The notes beneath the pieces were generated by a model. It made no database searches. It saw only the letters and a list, made by a program, of their open reading frames with translations, and was not told where the DNA came from. The translations under genes and the position numbers were made by a program. A stretch of DNA of 64,000 nucleotides from Yuukianura sp. NJ FZ-2021 (lineage: Eukaryota): positions 9,238,001-9,302,000 of the forward strand of contig CM102287.1 in assembly GCA_046563655.1 (NCBI GenBank), given 5' to 3'. Positions within the stretch are counted from its first letter, which is position 1. Each line of letters opens with the position of its first letter. Below, in pieces: positions 910-38,105 of this stretch.

Positions 910-2056
910 GTACAATAATGGAACCGTTGGACATTTCTTCAGAACCAGAAAACTTGTCTACAAAACCACAAGATCTAAGCATCACATCCCACGGAAAAGT
1001 AAACCCACCATCACCAGCCCCACCATCACGCATTGCCTTTGACCCACCACAAATTCAAAACATCCACCGTCAAATCCATGCATTTTATCCACCAAAAGGC
1101 CCCACCGCTGGACCCCTCGAGCCAATCAACTTCAACCAACCAACTTGGTCCCACCACAGTCTCTTTACACCCTACAACCCACGGAACCACCACCAATTCT
1201 TTGCCCCACCAAATCACACCCACCATTACCCCCCAAAGAGAGAATTCATTCTGCCTCATGACTCTCCTGCGCATGACCAAATGTCACAGTACAGACCAAT
1301 CCCAATGCGTCCATCTCCACCAGCCAAACACTTTGAAATGATTCATCCCACGCAGGTCAAGACAGAGGTCATGCGTCTCTCTGAACTCGGCACAGTCACA
1401 CACAGAATCAAAGTGGAAGCGGAAGACACACTCCGATCATTGCCAGTGAGGGACTCTGTCATCAGCCACAGCAACAGTCAAGCGCAGTTCCACCCTTCAA
1501 CTACTTCGCAGTACCGTGAAACCGTGAGTCGCAGCAGTTGCGACTCGGGCGTCTCCTCCCCCTCGGGCAGTTCCTGCCACTCGTCTTCCAGCGCCGTGAG
1601 TGGGACCGTGGTGAACGGGACGGTGCGCTACCAGTGTCCGAACTGCTCCAAGTCCTACTCGACGGTGTCTGGGCTGTCGAAGCATGTGCAGTTCCACTGT
1701 TCCGTCGCTGTGAAGAAGTCGTTCGTGTGCAAGGACTGTGACAAAGTGTACGTGTCCCTGGGAGCCCTTAAGATGCACATTCGGACTCACACTCTGCCCT
1801 GCAAGTGCACAGTGTGTGGCAAGGCCTTTTCCCGCCCCTGGCTCCTCCAAGGGCACTTAAGGACCCACACGGGGAGAAGCCCTTTGCCTGTTCCCATTGC
1901 CACAGGGCCTTCGCAGACAGATCCAATCTAAGGGCCCACCTCCAGACCCACTCTGATGTTAAAAAGTACTCGTGCAGTCGCTGTGCAAAAACTTTCTCCA
2001 GAATGTCTCTCCTCACCAAACACGAAGAAAGCGGATGCGCCACGGGGTCAATTTGA
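910..2056 (+). CDS. Snail-family (snail/escargot/worniu-type) C2H2 transcriptional repressor, main exon; 1-nt frameshift at ~1871-1874
   Basis: Five Snail-type fingers ([102 protein letters not shown]) split over ORFs 867-1931 and 1805-2056. PxDLS-like CtBP motifs lie near the start. A polypyrimidine tract + CAG acceptor ends at 909; first in-frame ATG after it is 918. No SNAG-encoding exon was found in 1-909. Exact paralog not assignable by eye. Confidence 0.95.
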
Positions 2057-2302
2057 ACCACTTTAAACTAAAAATCTCCTGCGAAATCCCGTTTTAAGTT
2101 ATTGTACTGTTTAAAATTTATATATTTCTTTAAAAAATTTAAATTTTTCAATTTATTTATTACGTTTAGATATAATATAAATACAACCGCATTATATTTT
2201 CTGACCTTCAGCCGTTAGTAGTTGTAAGCCTGCCCAATGTACAAATTTCGTGTTTCTAATTGTATCATATACTGTGGATTTTGCTGTTTCGGATGTGACG
2301 AC

Positions 2303-2308
2303 AATAAA
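2303..2308 (+). terminator. candidate polyadenylation signal of the Snail-family gene
   Basis: AATAAA ~250 nt after the stop, downstream of an AU-rich tract (ATTTATTTAT at 2151). Confidence 0.45.
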
Positions 2309-2955
2309 ATCTTGTATCAAAATATAATTCTTGAAACAAAATCTTTTAAGAAAAAAATCAAAAATTTTCTTTTCATTTTAGAGTCATTTCAGATTAAGTC
2401 AAAAAATTTCGTTTTTGTTCCATAAACATGCGTTTTTTAAGGAAAAATTCACGAAAAAATTGACTCATACTAAAAAAACGACAGATGAAGCTTGTACTAC
2501 AAAGTTTTGCGTTGACCCTTGACCTCTGGCGGCAGGATTTGAGTGATTAGATAGCGGTGTGCACTAATTAAGTACACCATTGCAGGGCAGGTGCTGGTGG
2601 TTGCCAATAACCCAAAGAACAAACAACGTACGTTACAATGTGTGCTTAATCTCAAGTGGACCACTTATCACACAAAACAAACATATGACATACACCATAT
2701 CCAGGCTATTACTACTCGCACGATATTTTTCCGCCGTTAATTCGAAAATGTCGCCGTGAAACTTTGTGAGGACTGACCTTTCCTCTGATTTTCCGATTTG
2801 ATCTTTCATGACGCATCAAAACGGGATCGTATAGATCATGCTGATTGGATTTAAATTAATTGAGCCTTTGTTCATTTGGCGGCTTTGGTTCATTGGGAAA
2901 TCACGATTCACGACAAGAAAGGAATAAAGTACTGATGACATCTTAGGAGAAATCC

Positions 2956-3006
2956 ATATTCCACATTCCATAATCCACAAGTTGTGGATTATGGAATGTG
3001 GAATAT
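2956..3006. repeat. perfect inverted repeat, 25-bp arms, 1-nt spacer
   Basis: ATATTCCACATTCCATAATCCACAA-G-TTGTGGATTATGGAATGTGGAATAT. Confidence 0.95.
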
Positions 3007-6000
3007 TATGGACAATTCCCTCGTTCCATTTTAATTTTGGTGTCCTGGAATGCCACATAATATTTGAATCTTAAGCTCTCCTGTTTTTGGCGCCCATTGG
3101 AAAGATAGTTTGAGTGCGTCCATTAACAGTTGATGTGTCTGGGTTTGTTGTTATGCTTTATGAGAACGTAACGTTAGTATTTGTTATTGTTTATGTTTAG
3201 GTTTTGATTAATCGATTAACGTATTCCGTTGAGTTAACGGGTTTAGAACAAATTGGTATGTAGTAGTGTGCTCTACTTTTACCACCTACTGGGTAAGATA
3301 AAGTTAGGCTAGAAATAGATTTAACCCGAGAGAGCAGGAGGGTGTAGAAATAAATTGATTGAAATGATCTTTCGATTACTTTTGTTTGTTTGCGAGTAAA
3401 GTGGGCCAGGAGTTGATTAACAATTGAGATGTTTCTTTTGTTTCAATTGTCAAATGGAGAAGAGTAGCTGACACGCTGACCCCGCCCATACCTTACCTTC
3501 TTCATTAAACTCTTGTTTATCAATTGAGCAGATCGGAACATTAGCAAATCCCAGGCTTAAGAAAATTCGCATCAACTAAACAATGGATTTTCAATTTTCA
3601 TTTGTTCTCTATGTTATTGTCTACGATTCGTTTTTTACTCTTTATATCTGATCTAAAATTTGACCTGGCATGACCTTCTGTGTCCAGTATAGCTGAAGTA
3701 AATGTAGTGCCAAAACATATCACAGACAATACAGTAACGTAGTTTTACGTTTTGGGATCTCCAGGAGCGCATACTTAACTTGAGTCATCGGAGTTATCAC
3801 TGGTCACCAATTTCGGTTCACTTGTACTAAAAAGCTGATTAAGGTTAATCTAGTTAGGCTAAAAGTTTGAAGTGGAATTTGTTCCTGCTGACATGATGAC
3901 TATGTTAGGAAACTCTGTACTTGTCATACTTTGTTTTTAGTTCATCTGCACTGGAGGATGAATGATACAAAACAGGTGGAATCCTTATGTAGTGGACTGA
4001 CTGACACACACTTATCATGTCATCAATCATTTTCAAGTGATTTGTATTTTACAAGCAATCCAGTACATACACCAATGTCAAAAACAGGTGGAATTTTGCT
4101 AACTTAAATTCAAGAGACAAGTATAAAATTCTCGAAATTTCGAAAACGAAATGCGAGTTCTAAATTCCGATTGTTTTTTGACTGCTATTTGGTCACTTGG
4201 GCAATCCAGGGCTGACTAAAACTGAGATAACTCAGACGTGACAAAATTGACGCCATTCTGGATCTGGACTATGCATCGTTTAGGTTAGGCTTATGTTGTA
4301 GACTATGTTAAGCTATGTTTCTGAATGTAATTGGTTTGGTGACCTCCTGCTCTGGTTGTTTGACCTTACTAAATGGAGATTCAATCCTGAGGAGATCCAC
4401 TTTCCAAGATGAATACAGAATAGGAGTTCCGGAATTGAGAAAATAAGAATCAAAGAGAGATCGATGCCTGCTTGGTCCAAGTCCATTGTCTCTGCATTTC
4501 GTGCGATATGCAGAGCAGAGGTCACGTTGCACGATTTCACCATCCGAAGTAGTTGTCGGTCAACTCTCTCATCATCAAAGATGCTGTTACAGTTCAATTG
4601 GAGATCAAAACGATATGGCTCTTCGACATTTCAAATCTCATCATCATTCCTCCTCACACCAGTCACATCAATTTTGAACCAATCAGTCACTCACAGACGA
4701 AACACCAAATCTCGTCTCTTGCCAAATATGTAAACAGAACATTCAAATTCAAAGAGAAACTCGTCGAAAAGATTTGAGATTTGAGTTTTGCTTTTTAAAA
4801 CTTGTCTTCTCTCTATTTGGATTGTAGATCACTACTCAACTTTGCTTGAATCATAATTTTGGTCCAATCTGCATCTTGCACTGCGGCGGCGGAAATTTTA
4901 AAACTCGTTTTTTATCCAAAAATCGTCCGAGCTACTCCTGCTGAACTTTTCATTTTCATTTTTGGTGTTGTGCAATTTGATGAACAAAAAATCGTTTTCC
5001 ATAAATGCATCTCTGGTGATAGCTTATTTCGACAACTTTTTCTTTCTGGTTGCGTGTAGAAGTGATACTCAAGCGTTGCTTGACGGCGGGAAATGAGTTG
5101 AGTTGTGTTTTGATTGATTTGACCTTTGACCTTTTCCTTTCTGAGAATCACTTCCACATTCCTCTCGTGTCGTTTCAAGTGGAGTGTGTCTCTGGGCTTC
5201 AATTTACTTAAGGCTACATCTACAAAAGTCAATTTTCAACCTGTAAAGAGTCAAGTGCCTCGTGTCTCTACTGATGTAAAAACGAAAGTTTATATGTTAT
5301 GCTAAAGTTATGATGTTTTGCGTCCTTGGTATTATGCAAGACGTAGAGTTGAAGGGGTCGGAGCCCTTTGGAACAACGAAGGGCTCCAGAAGACAATGCA
5401 ATTTGAAACAAGAATTTTTAGACGCATGCAGTTCACCTGTTTTACGATGACTGACATTTGACCTCTGCAGTTGAAAATGCAAATTCGTTCTAAGTTTTCT
5501 GCTAAAAATTTGTAAAGACTAAATGTGTAAAATGTAAAAAGGTTTTTTTTTTGCTTGAAAATCTGGAAATTTTGATAAATTGTTTATATTTCAATAAACG
5601 TGTATTTTTTTGGTGAGTGAGAGAAACGCATTCCGGAATTCTTTCCTGAAACGCACTTTTTGCTTAAAAGTTTTGCTTGTTTAACCACTTTTGAAAACCG
5701 ATTTTGAAAACCTCAAATCATTCCAATTGATGTGAACAAATTGAAAGTGGATGACAGAAAGTAAAAGTGTCAAACAATTCAACGAATAGAAAAAGCTATA
5801 CTCGCTTTCAAATAAACTGTCATTTTTTTTTCTAAAATTTTGTACTAAAAATTGAAGTTTCTAAAAAAAATCGGTTTTTATTTTTTGACAGTTCAATTCA
5901 CACTGGAAATCGAAAGTCTCACCAGTTTTTTAGCATACTGTCTATTATCATGCATTGTAAAAAATTGTTTTCTCAATGAAATGTATTTTATACACATCAT

Positions 6001-9000
6001 GATTTTCCAATTCCCAAACACTCCAAAAATTTTTTTTGAAATTTCGACAAATTTTTTCAATTCAATTTTTCATTTCAATACCAGACCAATGAAGATGTTC
6101 AAACTGCAAAATCAGAATGTGTTCTAAATGGTACCATTTTGCTTTAAATTTTAGAAACCGGCGTCCACATCTTTCACTAAATCAGTTCAGTTATTTGTCA
6201 AGGTCAAAGGTCAAACTGAAAAACTCATTTCTTCAATTCACAAATGCATGCACTACATTGCATCACCTTATAAACTGCGAAGTCACTCCATCTGAAGTGC
6301 AAGAAATGGTTCACTTGATGTCATTTTCAGTTATAATGAATTGAAACGTTCAATTTTTTTCCGCGTTTTCATACAGGTTTTTTAAGGCGAAGAAATTTCA
6401 TCAATCAATCTCTCAAAAAACAACTTTTTGTACCGCATTTTTTTTGTGAAGCTTTTTCCTTTGTTGGCAAACAAAAGCTTAGAAGAAACTGTTTTGATGG
6501 ATGATGGCATGTGGCTTAACGTAGATTAATCAATTAACGGCACAAACAAGCAGAACAACAATGACCGCCTACAACAACTTTTGTTTGTGTATTTGCAACA
6601 ATGCAATGCTTAACTGACACAGGAATTGGACTTCGTACGCCTCCTTAAAAAGCCAATTGTTACGCAGACTATAAAGATGTCAAAAGTTGACAAAAATCAA
6701 AAAATCCCGCCCCCTGATTTCAATTTAGCGTCACGTCAATTCAAAACTCCGCGCTACAAATCACGTAGGACGGCCTGAGCATCACTTTTTTTGAGATTTC
6801 TAAAGTAACTTTCAGATTCTGAATTTTGATGACGTTTTTGACCTGTTGCGTTTTTGGAATTTTGAATTTTGGTGGTTTTGTTTGTAACCTCATGAATCAT
6901 TCAGATATTGGCAGACGATCTCTCCTGTTTCTCTTCCACTTTTGTATGACTTTGCAATGGAAATTTTTAAAAGTACTGGAAGTGACGCCATCAAGTTATA
7001 CGAAAGTTGCGCATTTGGATATTTAAAATTTAAAACTACTTTTTTCTTAAAGTTTGACATTTGGGAGACTGTTGTGTTGTTTTTGGAAACAGTTGGGAGA
7101 TACAAAGTGTTCATCCTGCGGCAGCAGGAAACCAGGAGCACTTGGAGCAAGGTGCCTCGAGTCACTTCCCTTGTCCAGCAACAGGTTGCAGAGCACTGGC
7201 CACAACAATGCCCAAGGCCACCAATCACACTTCCTCCACACGACCAAGGCCCTTAAGGGCCCAAGGACCCTTGGATCCAGATGCCAAACGGACAGAGTCA
7301 ATTTAAAGTCGGTTGAAGCAGAAGCCCAATGATCAACCACTTAACTACACCACAACTGGAGCGAGCCGAAAGAAAACAAAAACCTGATTTTTTATGTTAG
7401 TAATTTGTAATGAAAAATTTTTCATTTTCTTGCGGTTTTTGGTTTTAAATTTTTGTGTCATTGTGCATAGACTATTTTCTTTTGGATGTTTTGAATTGTG
7501 GTGGAAGTGTCCCGTTTGAGGGTCACCCAACGGAATAATTCCTCATTCATTTCTACATCTTCAGTTTCGGATTTCCTCAGCCAAAGTGACACTCGGGCGA
7601 CACAATGCTACTCGCAACTTCGAAATTTCATTTTTGTTTGGTCAATGTAAAAACTGTTGAGGAATTGAAATTTGATGAAATGGGCGGAAAGGGAGAAACC
7701 GCAAGTGGGCGGAGAAAGTTCGGAATTGAAGACGCAACTTCATTCACGAGAGAAAAGCAAATGAAACGGAAGAGTGACCAGCAGAAGGCGGGAATCGGGC
7801 ATCTTTGATGCAAAATTCAAACAAAGTGAAGCGTTTGTTGGAGGGAATTCTGTGTGTGTTGCATCGTTTGATGTGATTTTGGAATGAATCGGAGTGTTGT
7901 GACTTGGCGGATCGTTTGGAGTGTGGTGGGGCAAGGGTGGGTGGGGCTTTGTGTCAGAGTGAGAAGTGTAATGAGGTTCGGTGGGACTTTGATTGATGTT
8001 GACTGGACATAGTGAGAGGTCAAATGCTTGTGGCTGTTGTGATTGGTGGATTCTGCAGTGTGTTTGGAGTGTTGTTTACTTCTGCGCAGGAAGTGTTTGA
8101 GCAGTTGGTTCCAGATGTGTATACTTTTGTGTGTTGGATTCTGAGTGTTTGGTTCCACAAACAATCAGAAGTAGAAGCCACTTCCTTCTAAATTCAAACC
8201 TACTTTCTCCACACGTGCTTCCGCCCTTGCGCTTCTGTCTCCGCAGCCACGCCCTCTTTTCTCAAAATCTTTGCAGCAAATTGCAGCAGCAGGGGTCCTT
8301 TTCAAGTGTCAGCTTTAAACGTTATTCCTGAACTTTCGAAATTGAATTTCTGACGGTTCTTGTAAAAATTGAATAATTCATCACTCTTTTTTCCTTGTTT
8401 TTATGAAAATGCAGTTTTGTGGTAGTATTTGCCTAATTTGGAATTTGACTGATTGATGTTGAAAAACATTGTTTTTGTTTTTAGTTTTCAGTATTTGCAC
8501 GCACATGCGAATCATCCTCCGCCTACGCCAAGAATTTGAAAGTCCATTTGTCACCTTCTGAGCCTCTTTGCAGCAACTTGTCTCTGCTTCTCACTTGTTG
8601 CTGATTACAAGTGACCATGTTTGGACAGAAAGCTGCGAGGTCACGCGGTCACTGGGACACGCAGCTCCAGAACTACACAACAGTTACGCAAAATCCAAAA
8701 AATTATGCTGATTTTTTACATCAAAGTTTTTCACATCACCATACAAATTGGCAGATTTCGAGAAAAAAAACTTTGAAAAAAAAGGAGAAAGCATGGAAAA
8801 ACAATCACTTTTGAAATAAAGTTTTCGAAATAATGAGACTTTGAAATGATTATGGTTTTGAACTTTATGAGCTAGGCAGTTACACGTTACTGTTTGTCGG
8901 TTGAAGGGGTTAGGTTAATTTGTGTTCATTTGAGAGTGGAGTGTGTGACCTTATGGCAAGCACCCTTGAAGGGCCCTGCTCCTCCAAGGGCCCTCTGCTC

Positions 9001-12000
9001 CGGAAGTGACAAATCATCTCCTGAGCATCTCTGTGTCTTACTCCCTCTCAAATTGAGCCTCGCAATTTATAGGTTGTTTCTGCAGTGGATGAGTGAGTTG
9101 GTGGGGCTGGTGGGTGCCATGTGGTGGGGCAGAGGGTGATTTCTGATTGGCTACGGGAGTAGTTGGTGGGAATGGAAGGTGGTTAGGCCATTAAGCTTAG
9201 CCTAACGATTAGGTTGAGGAAGTGGGGAGTGGAATTGGGCGTAGATCCGATGAGCTTTTAATTAATTTGCAGACATAGTTCATTAGAACCCACTCGGACA
9301 CTCTCTGGGGAAATTCAATCCAGCGACAAATGGAGTCTCATGCTTCGTCATTTGTTAAAAAAAGTGTTTGAATTATTCAGCATCCCGTGACACGCCCATT
9401 AAGCATCTGAGAACAATGTTTTCTAAAAAAATGTTCTGAGGACTCTAGAAAAGTAGCGTGGGAGGTTTGTCACTGCTGCGTTGTTGGAGACATTGAATTG
9501 TGAAATTGGGTCAAGCGAAGGCTAAAGTGGGTCAATGTACCCTTCAATTTGAAATGGAGTACACTTGTTTAAGGGTCCAGGATGAGTTAAGGACCAATAT
9601 TTGATCTTCCAGGAAACGATGACCTGGATTTCATTATGCTTCGAAAGAAAAAGAGTGAAAAAGTTTACTTTCTTTTCATTCTCAAACCGAAGTTTTTCTC
9701 AGAATTTGAGCTCTGAATAAGAATACCACACCACAATGTTGATTTTTTTAGTTTTGTAAATAAAAAAAAATAGAAAATAAAAAAAATTTGAATTTGATCA
9801 TTTCATTTCTCATTTTGAAAAATTTTCAAAAGCCAACAAAATTCCAATCGTCACATGGAAATAGCGATAGAACCTAGTTAGTACGATTTAATTTTATAAC
9901 GAAAGTTGTAGAAAAGTAAGAAGGTTGGAGGCGATACAAAAAATAGAGACAATTTTTTGTTCAGTTCAGATCTTTTTTTTTAAATTGACCCTTGAAGGGA
10001 TCAGTTTCGCACTGGAGCCCTTAAAGTAAGAGCCTTAGTCTAACTTTAATGTGAGGTCACAGGTCAACTCACTCCCAATTCCCATGAAACCCATCCATTG
10101 ACAAACAGAAATGAATCACAAGTCCCCTTTTACTTTAAAATATCGAGCCCTTAAAGGGCTTCACTTTTACCTGTTCCTCTTTGGAACAATTTTTTTCTTC
10201 AATTCTTCCATTTTAGCTCAGGTTTTAAAGGATCAATTTAAGGTTAAGGTATTCTAGACGCTGATTAACTGCAAAGCAACAACCGTGAGGTAAAATTCTC
10301 ACACCTCTTAACCTGACATGAATCAAAAACTTGACGAATCAACCTTATTCTCAGTTTTTTGTTCAAATAATTCAAAGTTCAAACAAGACTTAAAAAAACT
10401 TCAAGTCAATTCACTTGGTTTGTTTGAAGCCAAATTACTACAAACAGCATTTTGGAAAAGGCTTTCAATCTTTTTTAAAACATAAGATCAGGTTTTTTCG
10501 GATTTTGATTGAGAATGTTCTGTGAAGCGTAAACGGTGGAGTAGTTTTTCTTTTCTTGAAGAGAGAGATGCCCTTTCGTTTTCATTGTAAAACTGCAGGG
10601 TCTCAAGGGCCCTTGGAATCTGAGTCCCCCTGTCCAGGCACTTTTGGATCCATTGTCTTCCTGCAACCTTAGCCACTGGGATTCAGTTTGTGAATGGAAT
10701 AGGAGCCACAGGTGAGGAGGAATCGGTGGGATGGAATTAATTCTGCAGAGTGGGACCCTTAAGGGCCCTGCATCTCCCAGTCAAGGCTCCTCTTCCTCTG
10801 CATTTCGAAATCCGCTTCCTAATGAGATGGGGATTTTTAAGTCTCACACTTTCAAAGGCTCAAATTCAGAACCTGCCGCAACATTCGAAAAAAGTGGAGC
10901 AAGTTTTTGAAAGGGAGCAAAAAATGGAGTGAATAAGGAACGGAAATTTTAAATTATGCAATGCAAGTCTTTAGAAATTCAAACAGATCACGACACAGTT
11001 GCGTCACACGGAGCTTGGGAAACTTTCTTCCGTTGAATTTTTAATTTTGAAAACTGGACCACTTTTCTAAAAATCCAGAAAGTGGCATTTTTAGCAAGGA
11101 GTGACTGGTGCAACAAAGTTAAAGTTCACATACGTATACGACACTCTTTTCCACGAATGATCTGATGTTTAGCGTCTTGAGAAGTCGAGTGTTTTCGTGA
11201 ATGGATTTTCGAGCGGCTGTTAGCTGCTTAATGAATGATTTTTAAAACGCGGTTTTGGATTTCAAAAATTCATTTTCCAGTGGGCATTTTTTAGGGTTTG
11301 AAAAAGTTTAAAAAGTTGTGGACTTTTATGGATGTTGGTGTCATTTTTGATACATCGATTCTCTTTTTAAGAAGATTCTTCGGAGGCTGTGACACACATG
11401 GTCACACAATTCCAAAACAAGTGCCAAATGTCAAAGGTCACATGTTGAAGTCGGAGCTTATGCAAGCAAAATTGGGAAACTGAAGTGGTTCTTCACTCTG
11501 TCCATATATATAAATTATTAATTTTTGTAAACGGCGTCAAAATTTGTTTAATTTTTGGATATTTTGTCGGTTGGTTTTTTGAAAATGACTCCCTTTGCCG
11601 CCTGATTTTGAGTGGGAAGTTGAGTGGAGTGAAAGTTAGAGGAAGCGGAGTGTGTTGTGCAGGTGAGTTCTTGGAGGCACGCAACCATGACAGCCACGGA
11701 CCCTTAAGGGCCTCTGCTGCTGCCCACTGACCCCTTAATGGAGGAAGCGGAAGTGGGGCCTTATGGGCAGCACAGGTGACTCCAGGAATTTAAAAACTCC
11801 CGCTTCCGCAAAACAGCAACTGACTCACACTCTTCAAATTAACCCACAAGAAGTTCCGAAATTCCTAAACTAATTTAAATCCAAACCTTCCTCTCCCTGC
11901 TTATTTTGTGCAACTGAATCTCCCTTTTCCTAAAATTTCAAGATCCGAAATATTTTTCAGCGGAGGAGAGTTATTCAAAATGACAAAAATAGGTGTCATC

Positions 12001-15000: not shown

Positions 15001-18000
15001 GAGTGAGATTTGGTTTAAATGTCCAATGTGTGAGATCCATCAAGTGCAGAGGTGCGTGACATCGACAGAGGAGGGCCCTTAAGGGGTCTAAATTCAATTT
15101 GATCCCGAGTACACATGTATGCTCACACATCAATTGTTGTGTTGTGCATAAATTATGATTTGAACGAGAGAGAACAAGGGGATGAAGGGATGATTTGAAT
15201 CAGATGAGATCTGTCTCTGTTTGATTTTTAATCCCGTCCTGCGGCTTTTACAATTTCAAAAATGTTGACCTAGGTCATGTTCATACCTTTTCAAAATTGT
15301 TGTGCTTTGAAAATTTATTTTTAGTTCACCTAAATTCCCCTCATCAATGTCTTTTGGATTTCGAATTTCGAATCTTTCTAATCTTCAAGCTCAAATATCA
15401 ATTTCTTAAAATAGAGAATATGATCTCTCAAAAATATTTTGTAAAAAGGAGTATTTTGATCGCCCAATTCCCATTTTCCGTTTTTTAGAAAAAAAAATCT
15501 CTCTTTTTGTCAATTTTTTTCTAAAGAACAATGACTTTTGATCTGAAAAATGAGAACTGGAGCATATAGAATTTCGAAATCTTCACCACTTTCTTTCTTC
15601 GAAAAAAAAACTACTTTTTTTGAAAATCAAGAATTTAAGCGTGTCTCTAAAGTTCTTTACAATTTTGACACCTTGTAAGCCTTATGAGTATGACCCAGGA
15701 ATGGTACAGACCCACCGACAGAGAATTGTTATATTATTTATTATTATATTATATTTATTCATTGATTTTATATTAATTTTGAAATTTTTGAGCAATACTG
15801 TATAGCTGTTTGTTAGTGAAGACATTTTTCAAACAAGGCTTAGGCTTATGACGTTAATGAGACAGAAAGAAAATGAGAAACAAAGGGAGGGGGACCCTTG
15901 AAGCTGATGAAGATTTGAAGTGACAAGACAACTGGAGAGGTGTGAAGATGCTTAAGCACTTAACACTTCTGTTCCATTCATAGCACCACGTGACTAAAAA
16001 TAGCCTAAAATCCAATCAACTGCAACGTCCAAGGCTCCAAACACGAGCCCTTAAGTCCTCATAGCATTCAAAAGAATTGGCCTTAAATGCCGGTAAAATT
16101 TTACTCATAACTTGGTAGAAAATAATTTTGAAATGTTGAAGTTCAAATAATCGTTGATTCGGAAAAGCAACATTTCATTTTACGACAAAATTTTACAGTT
16201 TTCATCAAAAGAACGGAAATTTTGAAATTTAGGAAAAAGTTTATGCATGTTTATGTAATTCAGTTTAAGATTTGAAAGCGTGAAGCGCCTACTGCCTTCC
16301 ATTTACCAGCATTTTTCGCACCTAATGATGCGAAGCATCGCGGCGCAAGTTCAAACGACAATTTTTTGCTTGTAACTAATTTCCAATTCCGATTATTGGA
16401 TTGGTTGCGTTGAAATTTATTTGAATTCAAAAGTGACTCCATTTATCTTCAAATGTCACATCACAAGAAATCGGAAATTTGAACCCAGGCGGCACTTTCC
16501 CTTAAAGGGACTCAGGGCCCTTCATTTCAATTTTTTTAAAGTGAGAATGAAATGGGCGTTGGGAAATTCTGATTCTACAAAATCGGCATCAATAATTGTT
16601 CAATTTGTCAACGTGTCACTTTTCAAAATTTCATAATCAATCAAATTGGTTCAACCAATTGCAACACTACTGGTAAATACATAGCTAAAGTTTACTCTTT
16701 TTTTAAGGATTGACAATTTTTTTATGAAATTCTAATGCATTTCAACGACACTTAAAGTTTTAGCACTTCGTTTTAAAATTCGCAGCTTTAGAAAGACAGT
16801 TATTCTTCTTTCCATCGCATTAAAGTAGAATTGGAAGGGTTTGACCTCTGACCTCTCGAGCAAAATTGAAACCAAATGCCTTGACCTTTGTTTGTGTTTC
16901 ATAATATGACTCAAGCACAATTGAGTTTGTATTCACCTGGATTTTGAAAAACAATTTCTCCCTTTGCAGCACGTGAAACTCATTTTGCGTTCATTTGAAC
17001 ACGGCCTTTGTTTTCTAAAAAGCGGGTTTCCTCCTTTGGTGGTTGGAGGAAGCGGCTCTTTGTTGTTGTGTTCAAATGGACACATGAAGGGGGTACTTTG
17101 GCACAGGGGTCACATGAGGGAGTTGTCCAAGGGGGACCCTTAACAGTGACAATGGGTGACCTTGAGAGCAGGAGTTGTTGATGTGGGGTGATTGAGTCAC
17201 TTCACCTGGCCAAAGGTCATTCGTCTCCATTCATTTCCAAGTCCCCCCTTATTCTAGGGGGTACTTGGAATATTGAGATTTAAGTCATCAGAGTGTCCCT
17301 TCGTCCCTTGTCACAATCTTTGACTCCCTGGGGATCATATCTCTCATGTCAAAGTGTATCCAAAAACAAACATGTTCACATGGACATAAAAGGTCACACA
17401 AGGGCTACTTGACACCTTGGAAAACAATTAAGTTGTCCGAAACGACAGTTTCACAAACAATTTCTAGTGAAATGGACGTAACTGATGTGTCCAAGGACAT
17501 GCATGGATAAAAACCATCCGACCAATCCCAATCCCGCCCACGCCAATTCGTTTCGTCCAGTTTTGGAAATTCTTTGCTCAGTTTTTAGCTGTCTACGCTC
17601 ATGTTAAGTTCGTCACGCTTTTGCATTTTTATGTTCAAAATTTTCAGAAATTCTTGGCTTGTTTGGTTTTCTTTCTTTTTTGAACAAATGTCGGTTTAGC
17701 TTTCTAATGCTTTTGTTAGTTTTCAAATTAGTCAAGCTTCCTGGGAGTCCAACTTCCTCTGCCGTTTCAAATTTTTGCTGTTTTGACTGCTTTTCAAAAA
17801 ACGAAATCGAAGTGACCGAGGTCAAAGGTCAACGCCGTTTTAAGAATTTCACTCTCTGATATGCGAAGAAATCAAACATGATTTTAGTTAAGCATTCAGA
17901 AGTATGGGGAAAAGCTATTAAAGAATTAAAAAATTCTTTGTTAAAATTTTGGTCTTTTCGAAATTGAAATTTTGAATTTGAAAATCGAAAAGGCGGAAGG

Positions 18001-19213
18001 TCAAGCATTTTCCTGTAAATCTTGGAAACTTTTACCGCAAGATGAAATCCAAATAAAGACATATTTTCCCATTGTTACAGAACCAAAACCAGACACCCTT
18101 TCCATTTTTCTGTCAAGGGCCCCCAAAATGAGTACGGGCCCTTTGAAATTCATTGCTTACTGTGTCGGTAGTTCCCTAACCTAACTTAACCCTAACATCT
18201 TTTCACCCAAAACTTTACTTTCCAGTGATGAGGAAAGAGTTAAGGGCTCCCAGATAATCCAATTCTCAATTTCAAATGGAACCGAACCAAAGGGTCCCCC
18301 TTTCGGTTTCACCGACTTACAAATTGGAAATTTCGAAAAAATGAAAAACGAAAGATTTTTTCTTTAAAAACTCAAACACCGAATCCTTTCAATTCTTGAT
18401 CGAATTCTAAAAAACGCTCTTTTCTTTTGTCGATATCCTTCACTGGTACCCTTTAAGTCCCCAAAAATCAATTCCAATTTCAACTTTTTTAAAATCTGTG
18501 TTTGAACACACTTTTTCCAAATCTTATCACTTGACAAACTGAAAGTTTCGATTGAATCCCGTGTTTGTACATCTTCCAGGTGAACTCTTCAAAATTCAAG
18601 ATTAGAATTGAAAAAAGTATGACAGGGTCAGGTCAAAGGTCAAATTTTAAAATTCACCAGCAGAGAGTTATGTTGTTGGAAATGTTACGTTGTGTTAGGC
18701 TTTTAGCGTTGGACAACAAAAGGTTAGACTAATGTTGTTTTTTTGAAAAGTATCCATTAGTCCATGCTGGACTTTCTCTGCTTTCTCTTTTGTTGTTTTG
18801 GTTGCATGATTCACCTCCATTGCATCTGCCTCATTCACAGGCACCTTCATCTCCCTGCCCCCCTGGGGGGACTTAAGTCCTGTTTACTCTGTTGATGAAA
18901 TGATGAGCTCTGCGTGACCTGACCTCCCTCGCATGCAACTCACTTTGGAAGGACAATGAAAGCCCATCTCATGACACCCCTTAATGAAATGGTCCACCAG
19001 TTCCAAACTAGCACACGACGGTTCTTCAAATTAACTAAAAGCACACGCAACACAACAATAATTCCAGCATCCAATTAACACCACTTACACAGGTAGGTGA
19101 CTCATCTCCAAACTTATCCCATCAACATCAAAATTACATAACCTAGCACAAAAACGTAGGCTAAGACTAAAGACATTAGGTTAGTAGCCTAACGAAGGGA
19201 CAGAATACAAGAA

Positions 19214-19275
19214 TACAAAACAAAATTTCACAAAAACTAATCTAACTTTTAGTTTTTGTGAAATTTTGTTTTGTA
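19214..19275. repeat. perfect inverted repeat, 27-bp arms, 8-nt loop
   Basis: TACAAAACAAAATTTCACAAAAACTAA-TCTAACTT-TTAGTTTTTGTGAAATTTTGTTTTGTA. Confidence 0.95.
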
Positions 19276-22200
19276 ATGCAGGCAGATGTACATAGTTTGA
19301 CCTCCGACCTGATACGGGAGATTCCAATTTGTCACCAGGGGAAGGTCATTCTAAACCTCAGATAGGAATCGACAGATCTGCAGATACAGATCCGTTCGTG
19401 TCGTGGCCATTGAAGGTGTGAATCCACTTATCACTTTAGGATCTTGGTCCACTTTTATCAAAAATCTCAACCTTCTGCTCCGACATGCACAAAAACATCT
19501 TCCTAACATAATCTTAGCATGACCTGCCCCAACACGTTACAAAAATTCAAAACATAAATTGGAAAATGATTGCCATTTAGTTTTGTGGTTAACGGTGAAA
19601 AGTTCTGATCAAATCTGCAACACCGATCAATCATCATTGCCTCATAAACTGATCAAATTCAGATTTGACACGTTTTACAAAAAGTAAAATTTGACACCTC
19701 CAAAATTTTGATTTTGAAATCACAAACAAAAAACATAGCTAACGAACCCACGCCGAAGTTCCTTAACGTTAACGGTACAGTTTACTCTGCGTCGTTTTTT
19801 GAAAGTTGTAGCAACAACGGTTGTTTGAAATTGGCCCAAATTTGAAAAATTTCAAAACGATAAATTCAGAACGAACCTAAACTGAACTGTGGTTCTTCTA
19901 AGGAAAGAGGAGATACAAAGATTGAATTTATTGGAAAGGTGACCCTTAAGGGCTCAGCATGATTTCCAAAATATTGTGACACTTTTGGACCATCTTGTAC
20001 TTGAAGGAACAAAAGAAACAATGGGCCACACGCAACCTTCGACAGTCCTGGTCACTCTTCCGCTGGACAATTCAAAATTTCAGAGATCCAAAAATCGATA
20101 CACAACAAACAGCAACCGCCAAAAACTCAATCTTTTTCAAAAATGAAATAGAAATGAAAGAAAAAATGCACTTTTTAAAATTTGAGAATTATCAGACTAA
20201 CCAAGCTTCGTGCAACAGGAAAAGAAAAAACTATTTTTTGTTTATTACGAAACCTGGCCGACTCGTTAACTGTTTCGAAATTTTGCAATTCTTCGTTCAA
20301 ACCTAACAAATTTTGTTCGTATGGCGTTGGCGTTAAATTTCCACATACAAAAAAAAGTAGCATTTTAGCAGTTAAGCGTGTTCGAAACAAATCTTGCCCC
20401 ACCAGATCGCCTTAACATGCTACAATGGAGCCACCAGAAATGTTTTTGTGCCACCATGCCCCACCCATGTTTCCATTGTCACTGACATGAATCTGCGGAT
20501 GTGATGATGATCCCGTGTCATGTCAAATCTGTTTTTTAAAAAAAGCTGCGTCATGGTGGGAGTTATTGTTCAATTCAAAAATGATTTCTTCCCCTTTCTG
20601 CCCCTTCGATTCCAGCAATAATCGAGTAATCGATTACTTTTGGAACATCGTTGACAAGTGTCGACTACAGCTTGTCATCAATTCACACTTTCCACCTTGT
20701 CAGTTCCAAAAGTTAAAAGGTTTTGGAAAAAAATCAAACCAAAAAAATGTCAAAGGTCAAAGTGTTGGAAACCACATCAACGTCAACATTTTCAAAATCA
20801 AAAACGAAATCTTTGGCTCGAAATTCAAAATTTAACAAAGAAAACTGACCGATTTTCAAACTTTTTTTTTTCCAAAGCTCCTTCACCTGCCTGTTTCAAG
20901 TATCTACGTGACTGACCTTGGACAGAAGCCACAAGTAATTTTACTTCGCGCAGAAGTGAATATTTAGGGGGCCCTTAAGGGTCAAAGTTCAAGCGAGAGG
21001 AAGCTGTTAAGTAAATAGGAAACGCAATACGCAATGCTCCGAACTTTTACTTTTCAAAAAAGGAACACTTTTTTTTCAAAAGTAACTTTTGCATTTTTTT
21101 CGTTTTTCGAAAAGGTCCAATTTCAATATTGTAGAGTTGAGATTAGGTCAGGGGCATCTGCTCCACTTTGATCAGAGGTTGCCTAAGTACAGAAAAACAA
21201 AGGAGCCCTTAAGTACCCACCCACGGAGAACTAGATTAAACTAAGGGCACTTTGTTTCAGTAAACTACACCTGGTAAATCACTTACATGTAACAAACAAC
21301 ATAACACTGCGTGCTAAAGGGCACAATTAAGGACGTTGTTACTCTGTTGACACCGGAATAATTTAAGGGCTCCCGGGCCAAGCGGCAATTTTCAAATTTT
21401 TTGAAATTGAAAATTTGAAAAACTGAAAACAAAATCTTGCGTGACCTACTTTACATAATGACATCTGTAATTTGTACTTTTGTTCACAAAAAAGTTCCCT
21501 TCAATCAGTACTCTCTGGAGCCCTTAAGTACACTTCCGTCAAAACACGTAACTTCCGCTTCTAAGTTCCCTCAACTCTTCCCGCGGAAATTCAATTCCTT
21601 GAAATTTTGGCGCCAAAAGTTAAACGCAGAGGGGTTAAGGTTTTGTTGAAGCGTCACCTGCTAAGGGCCCACGCGTCAAGGGCTCTTCCGAATTCCACTT
21701 TCTGGGGCATTCCTGGATTTCGGTTTGGGGGCCCTTAATTTTCTCAGAAAAGTGGAAAAGTGACGGCCCTGGAGCGCCGGCTGCTGCCACTACTGTAAGA
21801 GTGAGATTGATTTATGGACTTAAGGGCCCCTGCAGAATTACAGAGCTCTTTGGGTAATGAGCAATATGGACTCGTGTGAACCATTAACCAACTTAATTGC
21901 AGGTAACCACATAAACATTTAAGGGAGCTTCACCTGACTTAAGGGCCCCCTCACCCCTTCAGTCACAATTAACTTTAATCATCAATTTAGTTAAAATTAG
22001 CTGTCAGTATTACTAGTTTGTGCAACTGAAACTTAGGCGTTCAAATATCCTAAAAATCATTAGCGGAAGCACAAGAGCCCTTAAAGGGAGCCCTCAGTAA
22101 GTTACCTTGTGTTTCTTGAAATTGATCCTTCTGCACCTAACCCTTGAAGCTTTATGTACCCTTAAGGACTCTGGGTTAACACTAATGGTTAATTCTTGTT

Positions 22201-25200
22201 CACTAATTTACAGAATTTGAGTCGATTTTCATCGAAACACGCCCTGTAATGACCTCCTCAACAACTTACAAGAAGGGCCCTTCAAACAGCATCGTTCTTG
22301 TTTTTGTTTTAGTTTTACAAGGGCCCTTGGAAGGGCTCCTGCTTCCTGTAAAACCTTAAAGGGAATCGGTGTAAGTTGTCGTTTTCTAAACAGAACTAAT
22401 GGACTTAATCTTCCAAGGATATCAAGGAGGACCCTTACACTTTCAATTACTAATTTTCAAATTAATGGTTCTTCCGCAAAAGGAAAAGTGAAATTGAATC
22501 CTTATCTGGTCAAGATTCTTGTTTGAACGATTGTTTTTGTTCTTCTTCAGAACAGTAGTTTTTTAAAACAAAAAGGAATACATCTGCCACAAAAACACTG
22601 AACTATTCAAATTTTTTCGAAATTTAACAGAATTCATTTCTAAAATTTCTTGCATGGTTTCTTACCTCCTCATTCATAATTTATTTTGCTCAAACAAATT
22701 CAAAACGTTTATAATTTTTTTTTCACTCAAGAAAGTGAAAATGAAACGTATGTAATTCACTTGTTTTTTTTTTTGTGTTGCAGACCAAACACTGAAGATT
22801 GGCTGAAAAATTAACATTAACCGTTAGAAATTCCCACCGGAGGCCATTTGTCTACTGGATTCTAGCCGCCTACTTTGCAGCATGCTCAACTTAATTTTTC
22901 AAACAGAATTTTTAAAAACTTTTTTAAATTTAAAAAAGTTTACTGTTAATCAGCCGCACCCGGAAGAGAAAAACAAGGTGTTGAATTCTATCCATTCAGC
23001 AGCAGCTGGAAAAGTGAAATTAGGGAGTTGCACATAGCCTACACGAGGCTAATAAATTATGGAAGTAATTGTTAATGATAGGAGGGTGAATTTCATAACG
23101 TTAAGCAAAAACATAACTTAATCGTAACTAGCCTAATTTAAGCAACTAACCTAATCCAACATAACCTCAAACCGCTGCCATTTTTAAAACTAACTGCAAC
23201 TTTTTGAATTTCGTGTGAAAGTAAAAGTAGGCAGGATTCCAAGAATCTTTTTCCGGGTTCCCTCATTGTCATAATTCCATTCTTTTTCCAGTCTCATGAA
23301 TTATTCCCGCGCTCTAATTTTTCCAAAACAGGTTCAACTTTTCAAAGTTCATTTTCAAAATTTCGTGGGATCTAAAAATAGGGGGCCCTTATGGGAAAGG
23401 GCTCTGGTTTGGAACAAATCTGGGGCGCTACCCGGGTAGGACCCTTAGCTTCACTCCGAAGGGCCCCTCTTTTGTCACCTGCAAAACACTTCGGTCTCTT
23501 TCCCTGGGAACAAAGTGTGGACAACACAGATCCATTTCCACTGGATCACACATCACACGATTAACAAAGGAAAAGTGAACCTGATTCCACTTGCAAAAGG
23601 GATTCAAATCCCACAGGGGTCAGAGGTCAAAGGACACAAAAAATTCACACGCAAAAAAATATGAGGGTTAAGGTTCATGGGAAAATTCAAAATTTGAAAA
23701 GACGAACAATACACTAAAGTCACTTTAATTCCGAACAAAAATAAAGCTGCAAAAATTCAGCACGAAAAATTTTTTACAGTTCAGTTAGAGTGGAATGTGT
23801 AGAGAGGAATTTGCGGACGATTTTCTTCTTATGTTTCTCCCCAGAATGCTTGAAATGCGTTTCATGTTTCTCTGTGTTCAGTTGAAAATGTTTTGGAAGG
23901 GAGAATTAGTTGTGAAAGTGGAGCCTTAGAAAGTGTGGACTTGAAGTACCCATCTTCTTCCATTTGTCACTCGGTGACCCTTGACCTGTCACCAACAGAC
24001 GCAACACTCACCACCAAATTAACAAAATACAACTCTGTTTGCACTCATCTCTCTTCACTAATCTCACTAAACAAAATCCATCTTTCAAACTTTTCCAAAA
24101 TCTGGAAAAAGGGGTTTTGTTTTTTCAAAAACTGGTTCGATTCCAGTGGGGACCCTTAAGGGCCCCAGATGCTCATTTGGGTGTCACTGCTTCTAAGGAT
24201 TCAAATTTTGAACCAAAAATAATAGGATTCATTTCGCACCAAAAACTAAACAAATCCGCTTAAATCCAACCGCTCAAAATTCAACAATCTTCGGCTCCAG
24301 GTTGTTGCTCTCTTTTTCAAAAAATCTTTTTCAATGTCAACCAACTGGGCCCTTCAAATTTCAATTTTTTCAGAATTTGAAAAAAACGGAAACTTGAGTG
24401 TTTCCTTTCAAAAAGATGAATTTTCGTTGGATTTGTTCCGTTCTCAAGGATTCGTAGCGGGATTTCTTAATTCAAAATTCAAGGAAACCCTTTCACCCCT
24501 TCCATTTTTTGCGTAACAGGATCAGAGCGAGCCCTTGAAGGCCCCCACCCTTGTCTGTGGATCTGGATTAGACAGTTTTCCATTTAAAAAGAAGAAAGTG
24601 GTAAAAAATGAATCATTTCCCCAAATCTTGTGACACTTTTTCTGAGAGTGAAATTTCAATGCAATTCTGCTTAAGGGTCCGTTATTTCCCACAAACACAT
24701 GCTAAGGGCTAAGGGCCCTTTGACCTCGCTCCAAACAAATGAACAAGGTACAACTGAAAAAAGTGGAGCCTTACTTTCTCAAGGGATCCAAAAAGGACAG
24801 TTTTCTAAAAAAAATTCTTTTCGAAAAAGGAGCAAAATGGAGCCCTTTAAAAATCTGAAAGTGTTCATTTCCATTTCGCTTGTTTTGGTGTGAGGTTCCG
24901 TTAAGGGCTCTTCCATCGTCATCTCTGCCCAAAGTCTGTTTGAATTTGAATGAATTGTCGTAGTGAGTAGAAAAGCAGAGTGTGAGAACTGTGGGTACTT
25001 GAAGGGACCCCATGGGAACTGGACTTGTGCCCTTCAACCAATCAATGCACTTCCAAAAAGCAGGTGACTGTCAAAATGAATGAAATTTTGGTGACCTTCT
25101 GACCTTTGGAGACAAAACGAATTTCTCTTTAGCCTTTTGCTTTTCAGTGCTTTCAAAAAATATCCTGCTGTTTTCTCCTCTACTGAAAATGTAGGTTAGG

Positions 25201-26964
25201 ATTGTTAGGCTAATTACGATCATTTTAGGTTAGTTAGGCTTAGATTAGGTTCGTACTCTTAGCTAGAAATTGACATTTCCGGAACTTATGGCATGGGTTT
25301 AGAATTGAATCGTCCGTACTTAGGCTAGGTTAGGGAAGCTGTCAGGGTCAAAGGGTCTCTAGGACTTAAACACTGAAACTAATAATAAGGCTCCCAAAAA
25401 CCCTTCACTCAAATGATTGAAACTGTCTCCTGCCTGTCACTAATTGAGACATTTCAACTAAAAGTTGATTCCACTTGACATTGACATTTGACCTCGCATG
25501 CACATGCCAGTCGGCATCGCATCATAGAGTATTCGCAATTTTTAAAAGCGCGCGAAAATGCTACCGGAGACGATTCTGGTGCGTCATAGCAGCTTGAACT
25601 TTCATTGGAATCCGAATTGTGGAAGACTTAAGGGGAGGGTACTTGAGTCCTCCTGAAATAAACCTACCAATTCTTGTCTTTGCAACGACTGTAAAGGGGC
25701 GGGACTTCAGAAAAAATTGTCTGAACAGGTGAAGATTTGAAATTTGAAAATCTTTTTGAACACGTTTTTAGTATTTTATGAAAGTTCTATTCAAGTAATT
25801 ATTTTCATCAATTCATTTATATTTTATTATACTCTACTTTACTAATGCGGTAGTTTGTTAATGTACTATTTGGTGTAAAAATTTTAAATTTTGGGATGAT
25901 CGACTCTTTGACCGTTGCACTTTGCCAACTTTGCGTTTTGTTGTGCAAGTAGCTTGTGGCGGAGGGACTCTATTGAAGGGCCCCTCCTAAGGCTTCCGCC
26001 AAACACCAGGCCCTTAAGTCCTTGGCTCAAAGCACAGTCCGGAATTTCGGGGATGAAGCCAAAGATCTTTGAAATGTCCCGGGTTTTATTTGTTCTGCAT
26101 TGCGTTACTCGGCAGCTGCTTCCCCCTTCCAATCACTGCCTCTTCCCCGCCCCCTCTGCCCATTCTTCCCAGCATTCAATTGAACCGGGGGTGGGGAGGG
26201 CCCTTAGCTCGCGCGACCAGCATCGACCTGGCGCGAGCCCTGGGCCCTCAAGGGCCACTTCCACTCGCGTCTCCCTCGCAACGTCCATTGTCACACTCAA
26301 AATGCTCATGGAATAAAGTGTCGTCCTTCAGAACATGATTTCTGCCTATGCATTCGATCCACTCTGTACAAATCCACAACATGAAAAGTCAAAGGTCCAG
26401 CTGCTGCAGCATCCCAACCAAAAATACTGCCAGCATCTATTGACTGATCTTGAAATTCTAGATACCTGCAAAATCTTAACAAGTCAGACTATCCAACACT
26501 TCTAAAAATTCTATGCGGCTACGAATTCCGAAATTTCAATGTAGGATTCTGGTACATCCAAAAGTTGGAGAAGATGTGAATTTTTATCATAATTGACTGA
26601 CTAATTTAGAAATCAGCTTTCAGCCCTTTTAAGTCCCACTTCTTTGTCTGAATCTTTTTTAAAAAAGTTTAGAAGATATGCCCGGACTCATGTGATTGGT
26701 TAGTTCAGGTTGAATTTCAAAAAAAAAATTAAATTGGGTGTCCACCTATTTCAGCTGGTGACACCTTGAAGGAGTAGGTAGCTGCTAGTACAACTCACAA
26801 AAAAGGTTTGTTTACATTTTTGACATTTACTTTGTGTTTGTGTTGCTCATTCGACTTAATGTCAACGAGATCGAAATTTTAATTTGTTAATTAATTGTAT
26901 AGTTAATTACTAATTCGAATTAGCAATTATTCCAGGTGTCGCAGCGTTCCTAGGGGATAACACC

Positions 26965-35141: not shown

Positions 35142-35589
35142 TTAACTAACTAAGTATTTGCTCAATCTTATGTGTCACTAGTACCTCAGAAAACAATTAG
35201 CGAAATCAACGACCTTGTGTTTTACGTCATAATTTAGGGACCCCTGTGGTAGTAAATAAAACTAGAGCAAAAAATTTCAGTGTAAATTGAAAATAATGTT
35301 GAAAATTTCAAAAATTTGCTTTAAGAAAAATACTTTTTTAATTAAAAAATTGCAAAATTCTTACAATTTAGAATGTGTACGCAACGCAAACGTCAAATCC
35401 TGCTTACGAAATTGCAAAAAGCGTCACGCTATTGTTTTTGGATGGTTTCATTATAATCTGTATTTAATTATGATTCGAATTAACGCCTCAATGTCAGCGC
35501 CATTTTTGAAGCCTTCTACAAAAGAGCTAAATTTTCCCTCCCTGCTAAATTTTTGGTCTTCCAAGTTTGCAATTTGAACATTTTTGAAA

Positions 35590-35952
35590 ATGGAGCTGAA
35601 GTTTCTGGTTGTGGCCACTACCGTATGTGTTGCAGTGTTCTACACTGCGCTGGCGCTTGAAAGCTACGAACAAAATGGCCCATTGGTAGGAAAACACAGA
35701 AGTACACGGGAGGCGGACGGTAATTAAAGCACAAGTGAATGCGTTGATTTCCAACTTCTTTTTCTGAACACACAAATTTAAAATATGTTCAAATTTTGGT
35801 ATTAAGATTTTTGATTTGTCATTTTACTATCAGGCTGTTGCTCGAATGGAGTCAAGTACAACCTCGGACAGAAATTCAAGATCGACTGTAACGACTGCAC
35901 ATGCCTTACGACGGGCATTTCATGTACGAAACGAGTTTGTGCAACAGAATAA
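35590..35952 (+). CDS. pacifastin-like 6-Cys secreted peptide 1 (exons 35590-35719, 35834-35952)
   Basis: Signal peptide MELKFLVVATTVCVAVFYTALA, RSTR site, GCCSNGVKYNLGQKFKIDCNDCTCLTTGISCTKRVCATE*; fits C..CNxCxC..G..CTxxxC. Confidence 0.75.
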
Positions 35953-36160
35953 GCCCCGCAGGGCCTCTAACACCACTGAAGTAGCACCTAACACAAGCTA
36001 AAAAGTTTTTGAAATAAAGATTTCGAAGAAAATTTTGAAATTTTTACAACCTGTAATCTAACCAACATGGTGTAAACTCGAAACGTTTTAGTACGCGTGC
36101 CTGTTTATAGAGTGTATAGACTAATTGTGAAATTACTTTGAAGAAAACTAAAATGAATTA

Positions 36161-37452: not shown

Positions 37453-37694
37453 GTGTGCGCGCCTTCAGATTCAGACTTAAAATTCTGCTTACGAAATTGC
37501 AACATGCGTCACTCTATTGTTTTTGGACGGTTTCATTATAATCCGTATTTAATTATGATTCGAATTAACACCTCAATGTCAAGGTCAGCGCCATTTTTGA
37601 AGCAGATTGTGCATTCCCTTTTATAAAAGAGCTTTTTCCCTCCCCCTGCAAAATTTTTTTGTCTTCCAAGTTCGCAATTTGAACATTTTTGAAA

Positions 37695-38105
37695 ATGGAG
37701 CTGAAGTTTCTGGTTGTTGCCACCACCGTATGTGTTGCAGTTTGCTACAATGCGCTGGCGCTTGGAAACTACGAACAAAATGGCCCATTTATAGGAAAAC
37801 ACAGAAGTACACGGGAGGCGAATGGTAATTAAAGCACAAGTGAATGCGTTGATTCGCAAACTTCTTTTTCTGAACACACAAATTTACAAATGTTCAAATT
37901 TTGGTATTAAGATTTTTGATTTGTCATTTTAGTATCAGGCTGTAGCTGGTATGGAGTCAAGTACAACCTCACAGAGAAATTCAAGATCAAGTGTAACGAC
38001 TGCAAATGTCTTACGAAGGGCATTGCATGTACCAAACGAATTTGTGGAACAGAAGCCCCTCAGGCCTCTAATAACACCACTGAAGGAGCAGCTAACACAA
38101 GCTAA
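37695..38105 (+). CDS. pacifastin-like peptide 2 (exons 37695-37824, 37939-38105)
   Basis: Close duplicate of peptide 1 including intron and flanks; GCSWYGVKYNLTEKFKIKCNDCKCLTKGIACTKRICGTEAPQASNNTTEGAANTS*. Confidence 0.75.

Follow-up and report, generated by a model that had tools for sequence, protein, structure and literature searches.

A short palindromic word concentrated in the 3' flank of a Snail-family gene: a putative homotypic binding-site array in Yuukianura

We analyzed a stretch of 64,000 nucleotides from Yuukianura sp. NJ FZ-2021 (contig CM102287.1; hereafter the window), which carries near its start a gene of the Snail/escargot family and, 3' of that gene, a long gene-free space populated by copies of a short palindromic word. 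The homologues of the predicted protein bear names such as snail, escargot and SNAI2 and are mostly arthropod among those listed, the best of them reaching 46% identity over 96% of the query. A shift of one base in a G run at approximately 1869-1876, between finger 3 (…HLRTHTG) and finger 4 (GEKPFAC…), interrupts its reading frame, so that either the assembly is wrong at this homopolymer or the gene copy is disabled. The motif-rich domain fills the space between Snail and the next gene, stopping about 0.7 kb before the first ATG of the gene at 26965, and the motif is real, as is its confinement within the window to the 3' flank of Snail, both being far beyond chance.

The perfect 10-mer CCCTTAAGGG was found seven times against 0.04 expected, a count reached in none of 100 dinucleotide-preserving shuffles. 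An earlier note on this DNA had named these seven positions and had reported no full copy in 27-64 kb; all seven are as it described, and the 10-mer occurs nowhere else in the window. The variants it had listed are likewise present where it placed them, with CCCTTAAAGGG at 10148, 12056, 16499 and 22078, CCCTTGAAGGG at 8963 and 9989, CCCTTATGGG at 23386 and CCCTCAAGGG at 26245, and the related AAGGGCCCTT occurs four times. More permissive patterns gave the same picture: GGCCCTTAAGG with at most two mismatches yielded 48 matches versus 6.9 expected, 46 of them at or before 26256, and TNAAGGGCYC yielded 33 versus 0.55 expected, all except two at or before 25983. The words most skewed between 2061-26400 and 26401-64000 all overlap a single consensus, and the underlying unit is a word of roughly 11-14 bp, CC(C/T)TTAAGGGC(C/T)CC, whose consensus CCTTAAGGGCCC carries two overlapping 6-bp palindromes, CTTAAG and GGGCCC. 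We refer to GGGCCCTTAAGGGCCC as the paired form of the word, as opposed to the single half-site, AAGGG or its complement CCCTT.

Half-sites number 141 inside 2061-26400, where an order-2 Markov model predicts 60.8, and 36 in the remaining 37.6 kb, where it predicts 35.3; the rest of the window is thus at chance, with no enrichment and no clear depletion. Extending the half-site sharpened the difference, to 61 inside and 7 outside for AAGGGC and to 26 and 0 for CCTTAAG. Under the same model, AAGGGCCC occurs 28 times inside (0.5 expected) and twice outside, and CCCTTAAG 24 times inside (0.7 expected) and never outside, both outside counts being those expected by chance. Because these two words lie so far above the Markov expectation inside the domain and at chance beyond it, the enrichment belongs to the word itself and is not compositional.

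To describe the motif itself, the 141 half-sites were oriented on AAGGG. Information was confined to positions -8 to +10, with a preference for T at -2 (81 of 141), C at +5 (61), C or T at +6 (59 and 43, respectively) and C at +7 (81), and with G strongly specific at all three GGG positions. Beyond this core, none of the 175 flanking positions tested departed from background out to 90 bp on either side. An iterated position weight matrix (PWM), thresholded at about two matches per shuffled window with this window alone as background, returned 60 matches, 52 of which fall in 5-26.7 kb and make up 41 separate loci, the others being divided equally between the Snail coding sequence (four) and the rest of the window (four). 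The result is a short degenerate motif with PWM-like variation, present in both orientations in otherwise unrelated DNA.

Counted per kilobase, half-sites run 1, 0, 0, 3 and 0 in kilobases 2 to 6, then 3 to 15 in each of kilobases 7 to 26 apart from an empty kilobase 13, before dropping to 0 or 1 from kilobase 27 onward. The densest kilobases are 21, 22 and 24, in agreement with the patches at 20.9-22.4 and 23.4-25 kb singled out previously. The same note had drawn the domain as 1760..26260. Its claim of restriction stands; its extent does not, as the motif is dense only over about 7.17-26.26 kb, the matches that set the proposed start sit in Snail coding sequence, and the 2.1-7.1 kb interval between is nearly empty (Table 1).

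Table 1. Coordinates of the Snail-family gene, the motif domain and its principal sites, in window positions.
Feature	Position	Strand	Remarks
Snail/escargot-family gene	918..2056	+	single exon, five C2H2 fingers; identified by six-frame zinc-finger scan, translation and homologues
PWM matches in Snail zinc-finger codons	1761..1938		4 matches at three loci (ALKMH, GHLRTH, NLRAH)
Motif-poor stretch 3' of Snail	2057..7167		only 4 half-sites, at 2516 and 5352-5383
Dense motif domain	7168..26263	both	about 130 AAGGG/CCCTT half-sites; nearly all of the 41 stringent PWM loci
Perfect CCCTTAAGGG	7250..7259		inside GGCCCTTAAGGGCCC
Perfect CCCTTAAGGG	10756..10765
Perfect CCCTTAAGGG	11701..11710		second-study contig over 11649-11827 has 0 differences
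Perfect CCCTTAAGGG	15076..15085
Perfect CCCTTAAGGG	19943..19952
Perfect CCCTTAAGGG	20972..20981
Perfect CCCTTAAGGG	24153..24162		longest palindromic context found, GGGGACCCTTAAGGGCCCC
Composite patch	24704..24733		direct pair AAGGGCTAAGGGCC, then AAGGGCCCTT, then TGACCT (AGGTCA half-site)
Next gene, first exons	26965..29095	+	coiled-coil-looking protein, no Pfam match

The domain is unique, non-coding DNA. Self-blastn found no dispersed repeats in 2-26.4 kb, and Tandem Repeats Finder found no tandem arrays of the unit. None of the 54 open reading frames (ORFs) of at least 75 amino acids in 2.06-26.7 kb reaches a curated Pfam cut-off, the single sub-threshold match among the domain ORFs being to DUF7511 (17.6 bits, where the cut-off is 27), and a search of the motif domain against Rfam detected no family. 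Contigs assembled from public runs of two studies and placed on 6500-26499 cover motif-rich stretches with few differences, for example 10584-11049, 22077-22535 and 23885-24854 in one run and 11649-11827 in the other. Because contigs from the runs of both studies contain the same DNA, the motif pattern is not an assembly artefact. Over this interval the contigs, which carry two organism labels, frequently depart from the window at shared positions; since both studies' contigs share these positions, the window haplotype is the odd one out, with a diversity of a few percent.

The same interval also differs from its surroundings in composition. The observed/expected ratio of CpG is 0.64 in 7-26.4 kb (0.72 with the motif masked), compared with 0.94-0.95 in the rest of the window, and TpG/CpA shows no clear excess in the depleted domain. 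CpG depletion is therefore a second domain-wide signature that coincides with the motif domain. CAGGTG, a Snail-type E-box, was counted 16 times in the domain and 5 times outside, and the palindrome TTTCGAAA 11 and 3 times. Other words are scarcer in 7000-26400 than outside, namely WGATAR (9 versus 53), TAATTA (6 versus 37) and CATATG (0 versus 8), outside counts that may partly stem from the repeats at 35-43 kb. Consensus words for Zelda, Dorsal, Twist, Su(H), GAGA, Pho, NK2 and TCF were not enriched in the domain.

Two further properties bear on what might read the word. First, half-sites form inverted pairs at close range: CCCTT-AAGGG (offset 5) occurs seven times, CCCTT-N-AAGGG (offset 6) six times and AAGGG-CCCTT (offset 5) four times, approximately 30-fold over the 0.2 expected per offset (70 x 71 / 24340). 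About a quarter of all half-sites lie in such overlapping pairs, which share either TTAA (CCCTT-N0/1-AAGGG) or GGGCCC (AAGGGCCCTT), and this pairing hints at a protein that engages DNA as a dimer or oligomer and tolerates some variation in geometry. Second, the word enters the Snail coding sequence, with PWM matches at 1761, 1850, 1854 and 1925. Using a PWM built from non-coding sites only and 3000 synonymous-codon permutations within the gene, we compared these four matches with a permutation mean of 0.58-0.83; only 0.07-0.4% of permutations reached four (P = 0.0007-0.004). Since the amino-acid sequence alone leaves the four matches unexplained, Snail codon choice is drawn toward the word, and this codon-level excess therefore ties the motif to Snail at the DNA level.

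Together, these data lead us to interpret the domain as a locus-restricted, very large homotypic array of predicted sites for one sequence-specific DNA-binding protein, a reading to which we assign a probability of about 0.5. Among the possibilities raised previously, clustered sites for a homodimeric factor provide the best fit, with a discrete PWM-like word on both strands of unique DNA and inverted pairs in excess. The recognized unit would be an asymmetric word of about 11 bp, roughly T-N-A-A-G-G-G-C-(C/T)-C. With some 100 sites, graded in strength, along its 19 kb, the domain would have an avidity for the factor far above that of ordinary DNA, such that the factor might act mainly at the Snail locus and exert domain-wide control over Snail. 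Binding of the word by a protein, the identity of Snail as its target and the direction of the effect are what we infer from these patterns. Because the sites span nearly every kilobase, instead of forming modules of 0.5-1 kb, and enter the Snail coding sequence, we consider a coat that would impose a single state, whether silent, primed or architectural, on all of the 3' regulatory desert more likely than a classical enhancer activator. By extension, about 100 short palindromic words may recruit a lineage-specific protein that would coat all of the regulatory desert of a developmental master gene, together with some of its coding sequence, the state of the domain being written in its sequence and the word perhaps flagging other developmental loci as well; this wider proposal is a conjecture that we think unlikely to hold in full.

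Several observations weigh against the binding-site array. The word has no match to any verifiable known factor, and in a literature search by sequence string in open-access journals it was not described as a binding motif among the matches listed, which resemble primers or unrelated uses except for one paper on DNA cyclizability. The two site types that come closest, compared further below, both diverge at their 3' end: the word continues as GCC or GCT, not as the TCA of an extended nuclear-receptor half-site, and the final invariant A of a THAP1-type site is A in 24 of the 141 sites and C in 81, so that the latter type is not matched in full. A rigid dimer would not usually accommodate two inverted geometries and two spacings (N0 and N1), and such loose pair geometry fits a readout of DNA shape equally well. 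No partner motif was detected near the sites among 706 hexamers tested (best P = 0.002). Of the read-set differences, none of the 40 listed (of 875) falls in a 5-bp motif core against 1.4 expected (P = 0.25), a comparison that had no power. Four Snail loci recovered from metagenomes, at most 47% identical and from distant organisms, were uninformative, and CCCTTAAG occurs in none of them. Finally, the domain abuts the start of the downstream gene, which could itself be the target.

Closest to the binding-site array is an architectural reading, in which the array would serve as a boundary, tether or pairing platform that folds the chromosome or insulates Snail from the housekeeping-like genes downstream without setting the transcriptional state of Snail directly. 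The way in which the array fills the intergenic space and ends just short of the next gene's first ATG is what such an element might look like, as is its even spread, with at least three half-sites in 19 of the 20 one-kilobase bins from 7 to 27 kb and not in a few modules. The evenness breaks down, however, at the 500-bp scale, where the distribution is patchy (variance/mean 2.2, with 8 of 38 bins empty), and the codon-level excess points to Snail itself. Known arthropod insulator arrays are, moreover, typically compact, at hundreds of base pairs. We judge an architectural array unlikely.

A second alternative dispenses with a dedicated protein and attributes the domain to DNA mechanics, one-turn bendable patches (a TTAA step flanked by GGGCCC) biasing nucleosomes or looping. 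This bears on the earlier description of the locus as a palindromic signature with ~10-bp periodicity and on the suggestion that it anchors nucleosomes. The premise that TA/GC alternation at helical periodicity favors bendability is sound: in a pairwise model of loop-seq data, the most cyclizable sequences alternate TTAAA-like TA-rich and GGGCCC-like GC-rich tracts of 5-6 bp each (PMC13238741, section 12, Table 1). The unit found here likewise alternates TA-rich and GC-rich tracts with T before A, as in CCTTAAGGGCCC, CCCTTAAAGGG and AAGGGCCCTT, and amounts to one period of that predicted optimum, which the unit family, its 10- and 11-bp variants and both palindrome phases all match. The periodic look arises because a single unit contains overlapping CTTAAG and GGGCCC, which lets each instance pass for an excerpt of (AAGGGCCCTT)n. 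The longest site context, however, covers only about 1.6 periods and the sites do not form arrays; as cyclizability needs several consecutive periods, the match to the unit does not carry that property.

Direct tests for periodicity gave consistent negative results. With W denoting A or T and S denoting G or C, neither WW/SS autocorrelation at 10-11 bp nor 147-bp periodograms over periods 7-14 rose, within the domain, above the level of the remaining window. The S content outside the motif showed no phasing with the sites at periods 9 to 12 (13-92% of random anchor sets matched its amplitude), and 31-bp windows that fit W5/S5, W5/S6 or W6/S5 templates were no more frequent than in shuffles or elsewhere in the window. 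The mean half-site spacing of approximately 172 bp (141 in 24.3 kb) is of the kind a mechanical account might predict, and merged sites show a nominal excess of pairs at 150-160 bp (15 versus 7.2, P = 0.01 uncorrected). This peak does not survive correction, 39% of jittered controls being as extreme. In addition, the specificity for G at every position of GGG exceeds what a W/S bending rule needs. A helical-periodicity or nucleosome-positioning reading of the domain, including a nucleosome-anchoring code, is thus not supported, and we consider intrinsic mechanics as the sole explanation quite unlikely, although the agreement with the cyclizability optimum leaves it some weight.

The word could also be a neutral by-product, left by transposon ends, by excision footprints (a TTAA target with GGGCC... 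termini) or by the decay of tandemly repeated AAGGGCCCTT. Transposons are known that target TTAA, and AAGGGCCCTT and CCCTTAAGGG can in principle be read as joined ends. The oriented sites argue otherwise, in that no similarity extends beyond about 10 bp of the core, in line with the earlier remark that the flanks are not homologous, and decay would not keep 11 bp while erasing the rest. The absence of dispersed repeats and of a tandem array of the unit points the same way, as does the distribution of the word, which stays at its chance level throughout the other 37.6 kb, including the repeat-rich 35-43 kb, so that no dispersal beyond the locus is seen within the window. Moreover, the excess reaches constrained coding sequence through synonymous choices. 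These readings are largely refuted, and we regard them as very improbable and close to excluded. Least credible of all is a transcript-level signal, either a promoter or processing motif of many small RNA units or a protein-binding motif of a long non-coding RNA: a 16-bp palindrome could fold into a GC stem with a TTAA loop, and CpG depletion is a trait that transcribed, methylated DNA can have, but most sites are single half-sites unable to form a hairpin, no nucleotide signal lies at a fixed distance up- or downstream to 90 bp, no Rfam family is present, and the half-sites divide 70/71 between the two strands, which favors a signal at the level of the duplex over one of RNA.

Beyond the domain, the window contains further features of note. 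A direct repeat of nuclear-receptor type, AGGTCANAGGTCA, has 26 matches with at most one mismatch across the whole window (14 perfect) against 0.25 expected, for example at 5120, 6201, 17819, 18630, 35129, 44328, 53791, 57431 and 59655. These copies have unrelated flanks, lie in intergenic DNA and introns and are not confined to the Snail domain; by itself, AGGTCA reaches about 4.5 times the frequency predicted by an order-2 Markov model in either half of the window. At 36364-37455 lies a tandem satellite of approximately 59-bp period (86-94% identity between shifted copies), which is surrounded at 38-43 kb by segmental repeats of 66-88% identity, the whole repeat region spanning 35387-43095. 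It is AT-rich (GC 0.29 at 36-38 kb) and lacks the Snail-domain motif. At 46886-48664 lies an open frame of 592 residues, rich in Ser, Lys, Thr and Asn and without a Pfam match, which contains an internal duplication (47762-48426 versus 47108-47760, 81% identity); two of the four stringent PWM matches found elsewhere in the window correspond to its repeated GNKKGPLKN codons, at 47.6 and 48.3 kb. Two tandem genes at 49185-50667 and 51156-52690 have large hydrophobic exons resembling multi-pass membrane proteins, and the three exon ORFs scanned gave no Pfam match. A P450 exon at 59.6-60.5 kb is most like arthropod CYP6-type clusters.

Homotypic site clusters normally extend over a few hundred bases to a few kilobases. 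About 100 copies of an 11-bp word spread over 19 kb of unique DNA, up to the gene borders and into synonymous codons, are unusual; the array would belong to this known kind but stand apart by its scale. If true, the binding-site array would offer a testable handle on how a whole developmental locus, beyond a single enhancer, is addressed in sequence. Should the word also mark other developmental genes, it would point to an unrecognized arthropod domain-marking system; should it be unique to Snail, it would add a second case in which a factor serves a single gene. If the coat proposal is correct, the domain would constitute an invertebrate counterpart of CpG-island or Polycomb-type domain marking, written in a word that is one period of the most bendable DNA.

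Comparison with known systems places these findings in context. The domain resembles a Drosophila-type Polycomb response element in proposed function only, as a sequence-encoded mark over the flank of a developmental regulator. The earlier note had suggested a Polycomb-domain equivalent, for which known motif grammar gives no support: Pho-like GCCATHWY occurs 2 times in the domain and 22 times outside, and GAGAGAG 2 times in each, and we accordingly rejected this type of element, although a different recruiter is conceivable. In C. elegans, germline genes carry periodic An/Tn clusters (PATCs), extended stretches of A/T tracts phased at 10 bp. Like them, the domain carries a restricted non-coding signature that may be tied to a gene class; unlike them, it has no 10-bp periodicity, and its word is a specific motif that contains G and C.

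The extended nuclear-receptor half-site of ERR/FTZ-F1 type is TNAAGGTCA. The word shares its 5' part, T-N-A-A-G-G, and its inverted, everted and occasionally direct arrangements, and some half-sites here abut genuine AGGTCA sites. Apart from the 3' difference described above, the two are distinguished by the direct repeats of the half-site, which are not enriched, and by the window-wide occurrence of genuine AGGTCA and of its direct repeat with one-base spacing (DR1), in contrast to the domain-restricted word. For THAP1, the core of the binding sequence (THABS) is TxxxGGCA, with five invariant bases (PMC2879526). Here a T is followed by GGC three bases on, as TAAGGGC, such that four of the five invariant bases align, whereas the better-conserved T lies one base further 5'. 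Specificities differ between THAP domains, and the THAP family may thus serve as a lead only.

Helically phased cyclizable DNA has TTAA(A)/GGGCCC as its repeat unit (PMC13238741), and this is the unit of the Snail domain as well, the difference being that each site here spans 1-1.6 periods without phased surroundings, in place of the several periods on which the property depends. The nearest parallel to the binding-site array is ZNF410 at CHD4, described in three reports as a factor devoted to one locus by way of a dense motif cluster (10.1101/2020.08.31.274324, 10.1101/2020.08.31.272856, 10.1101/2024.02.24.581901). In both cases one gene locus gathers numerous copies of a short motif that is rare elsewhere, which here means within the window; for ZNF410, this limits occupancy and regulation to the locus. 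The ZNF410 sites form two compact clusters, whereas at Snail about 100 predicted sites extend over 19 kb and into the coding sequence of the gene itself.

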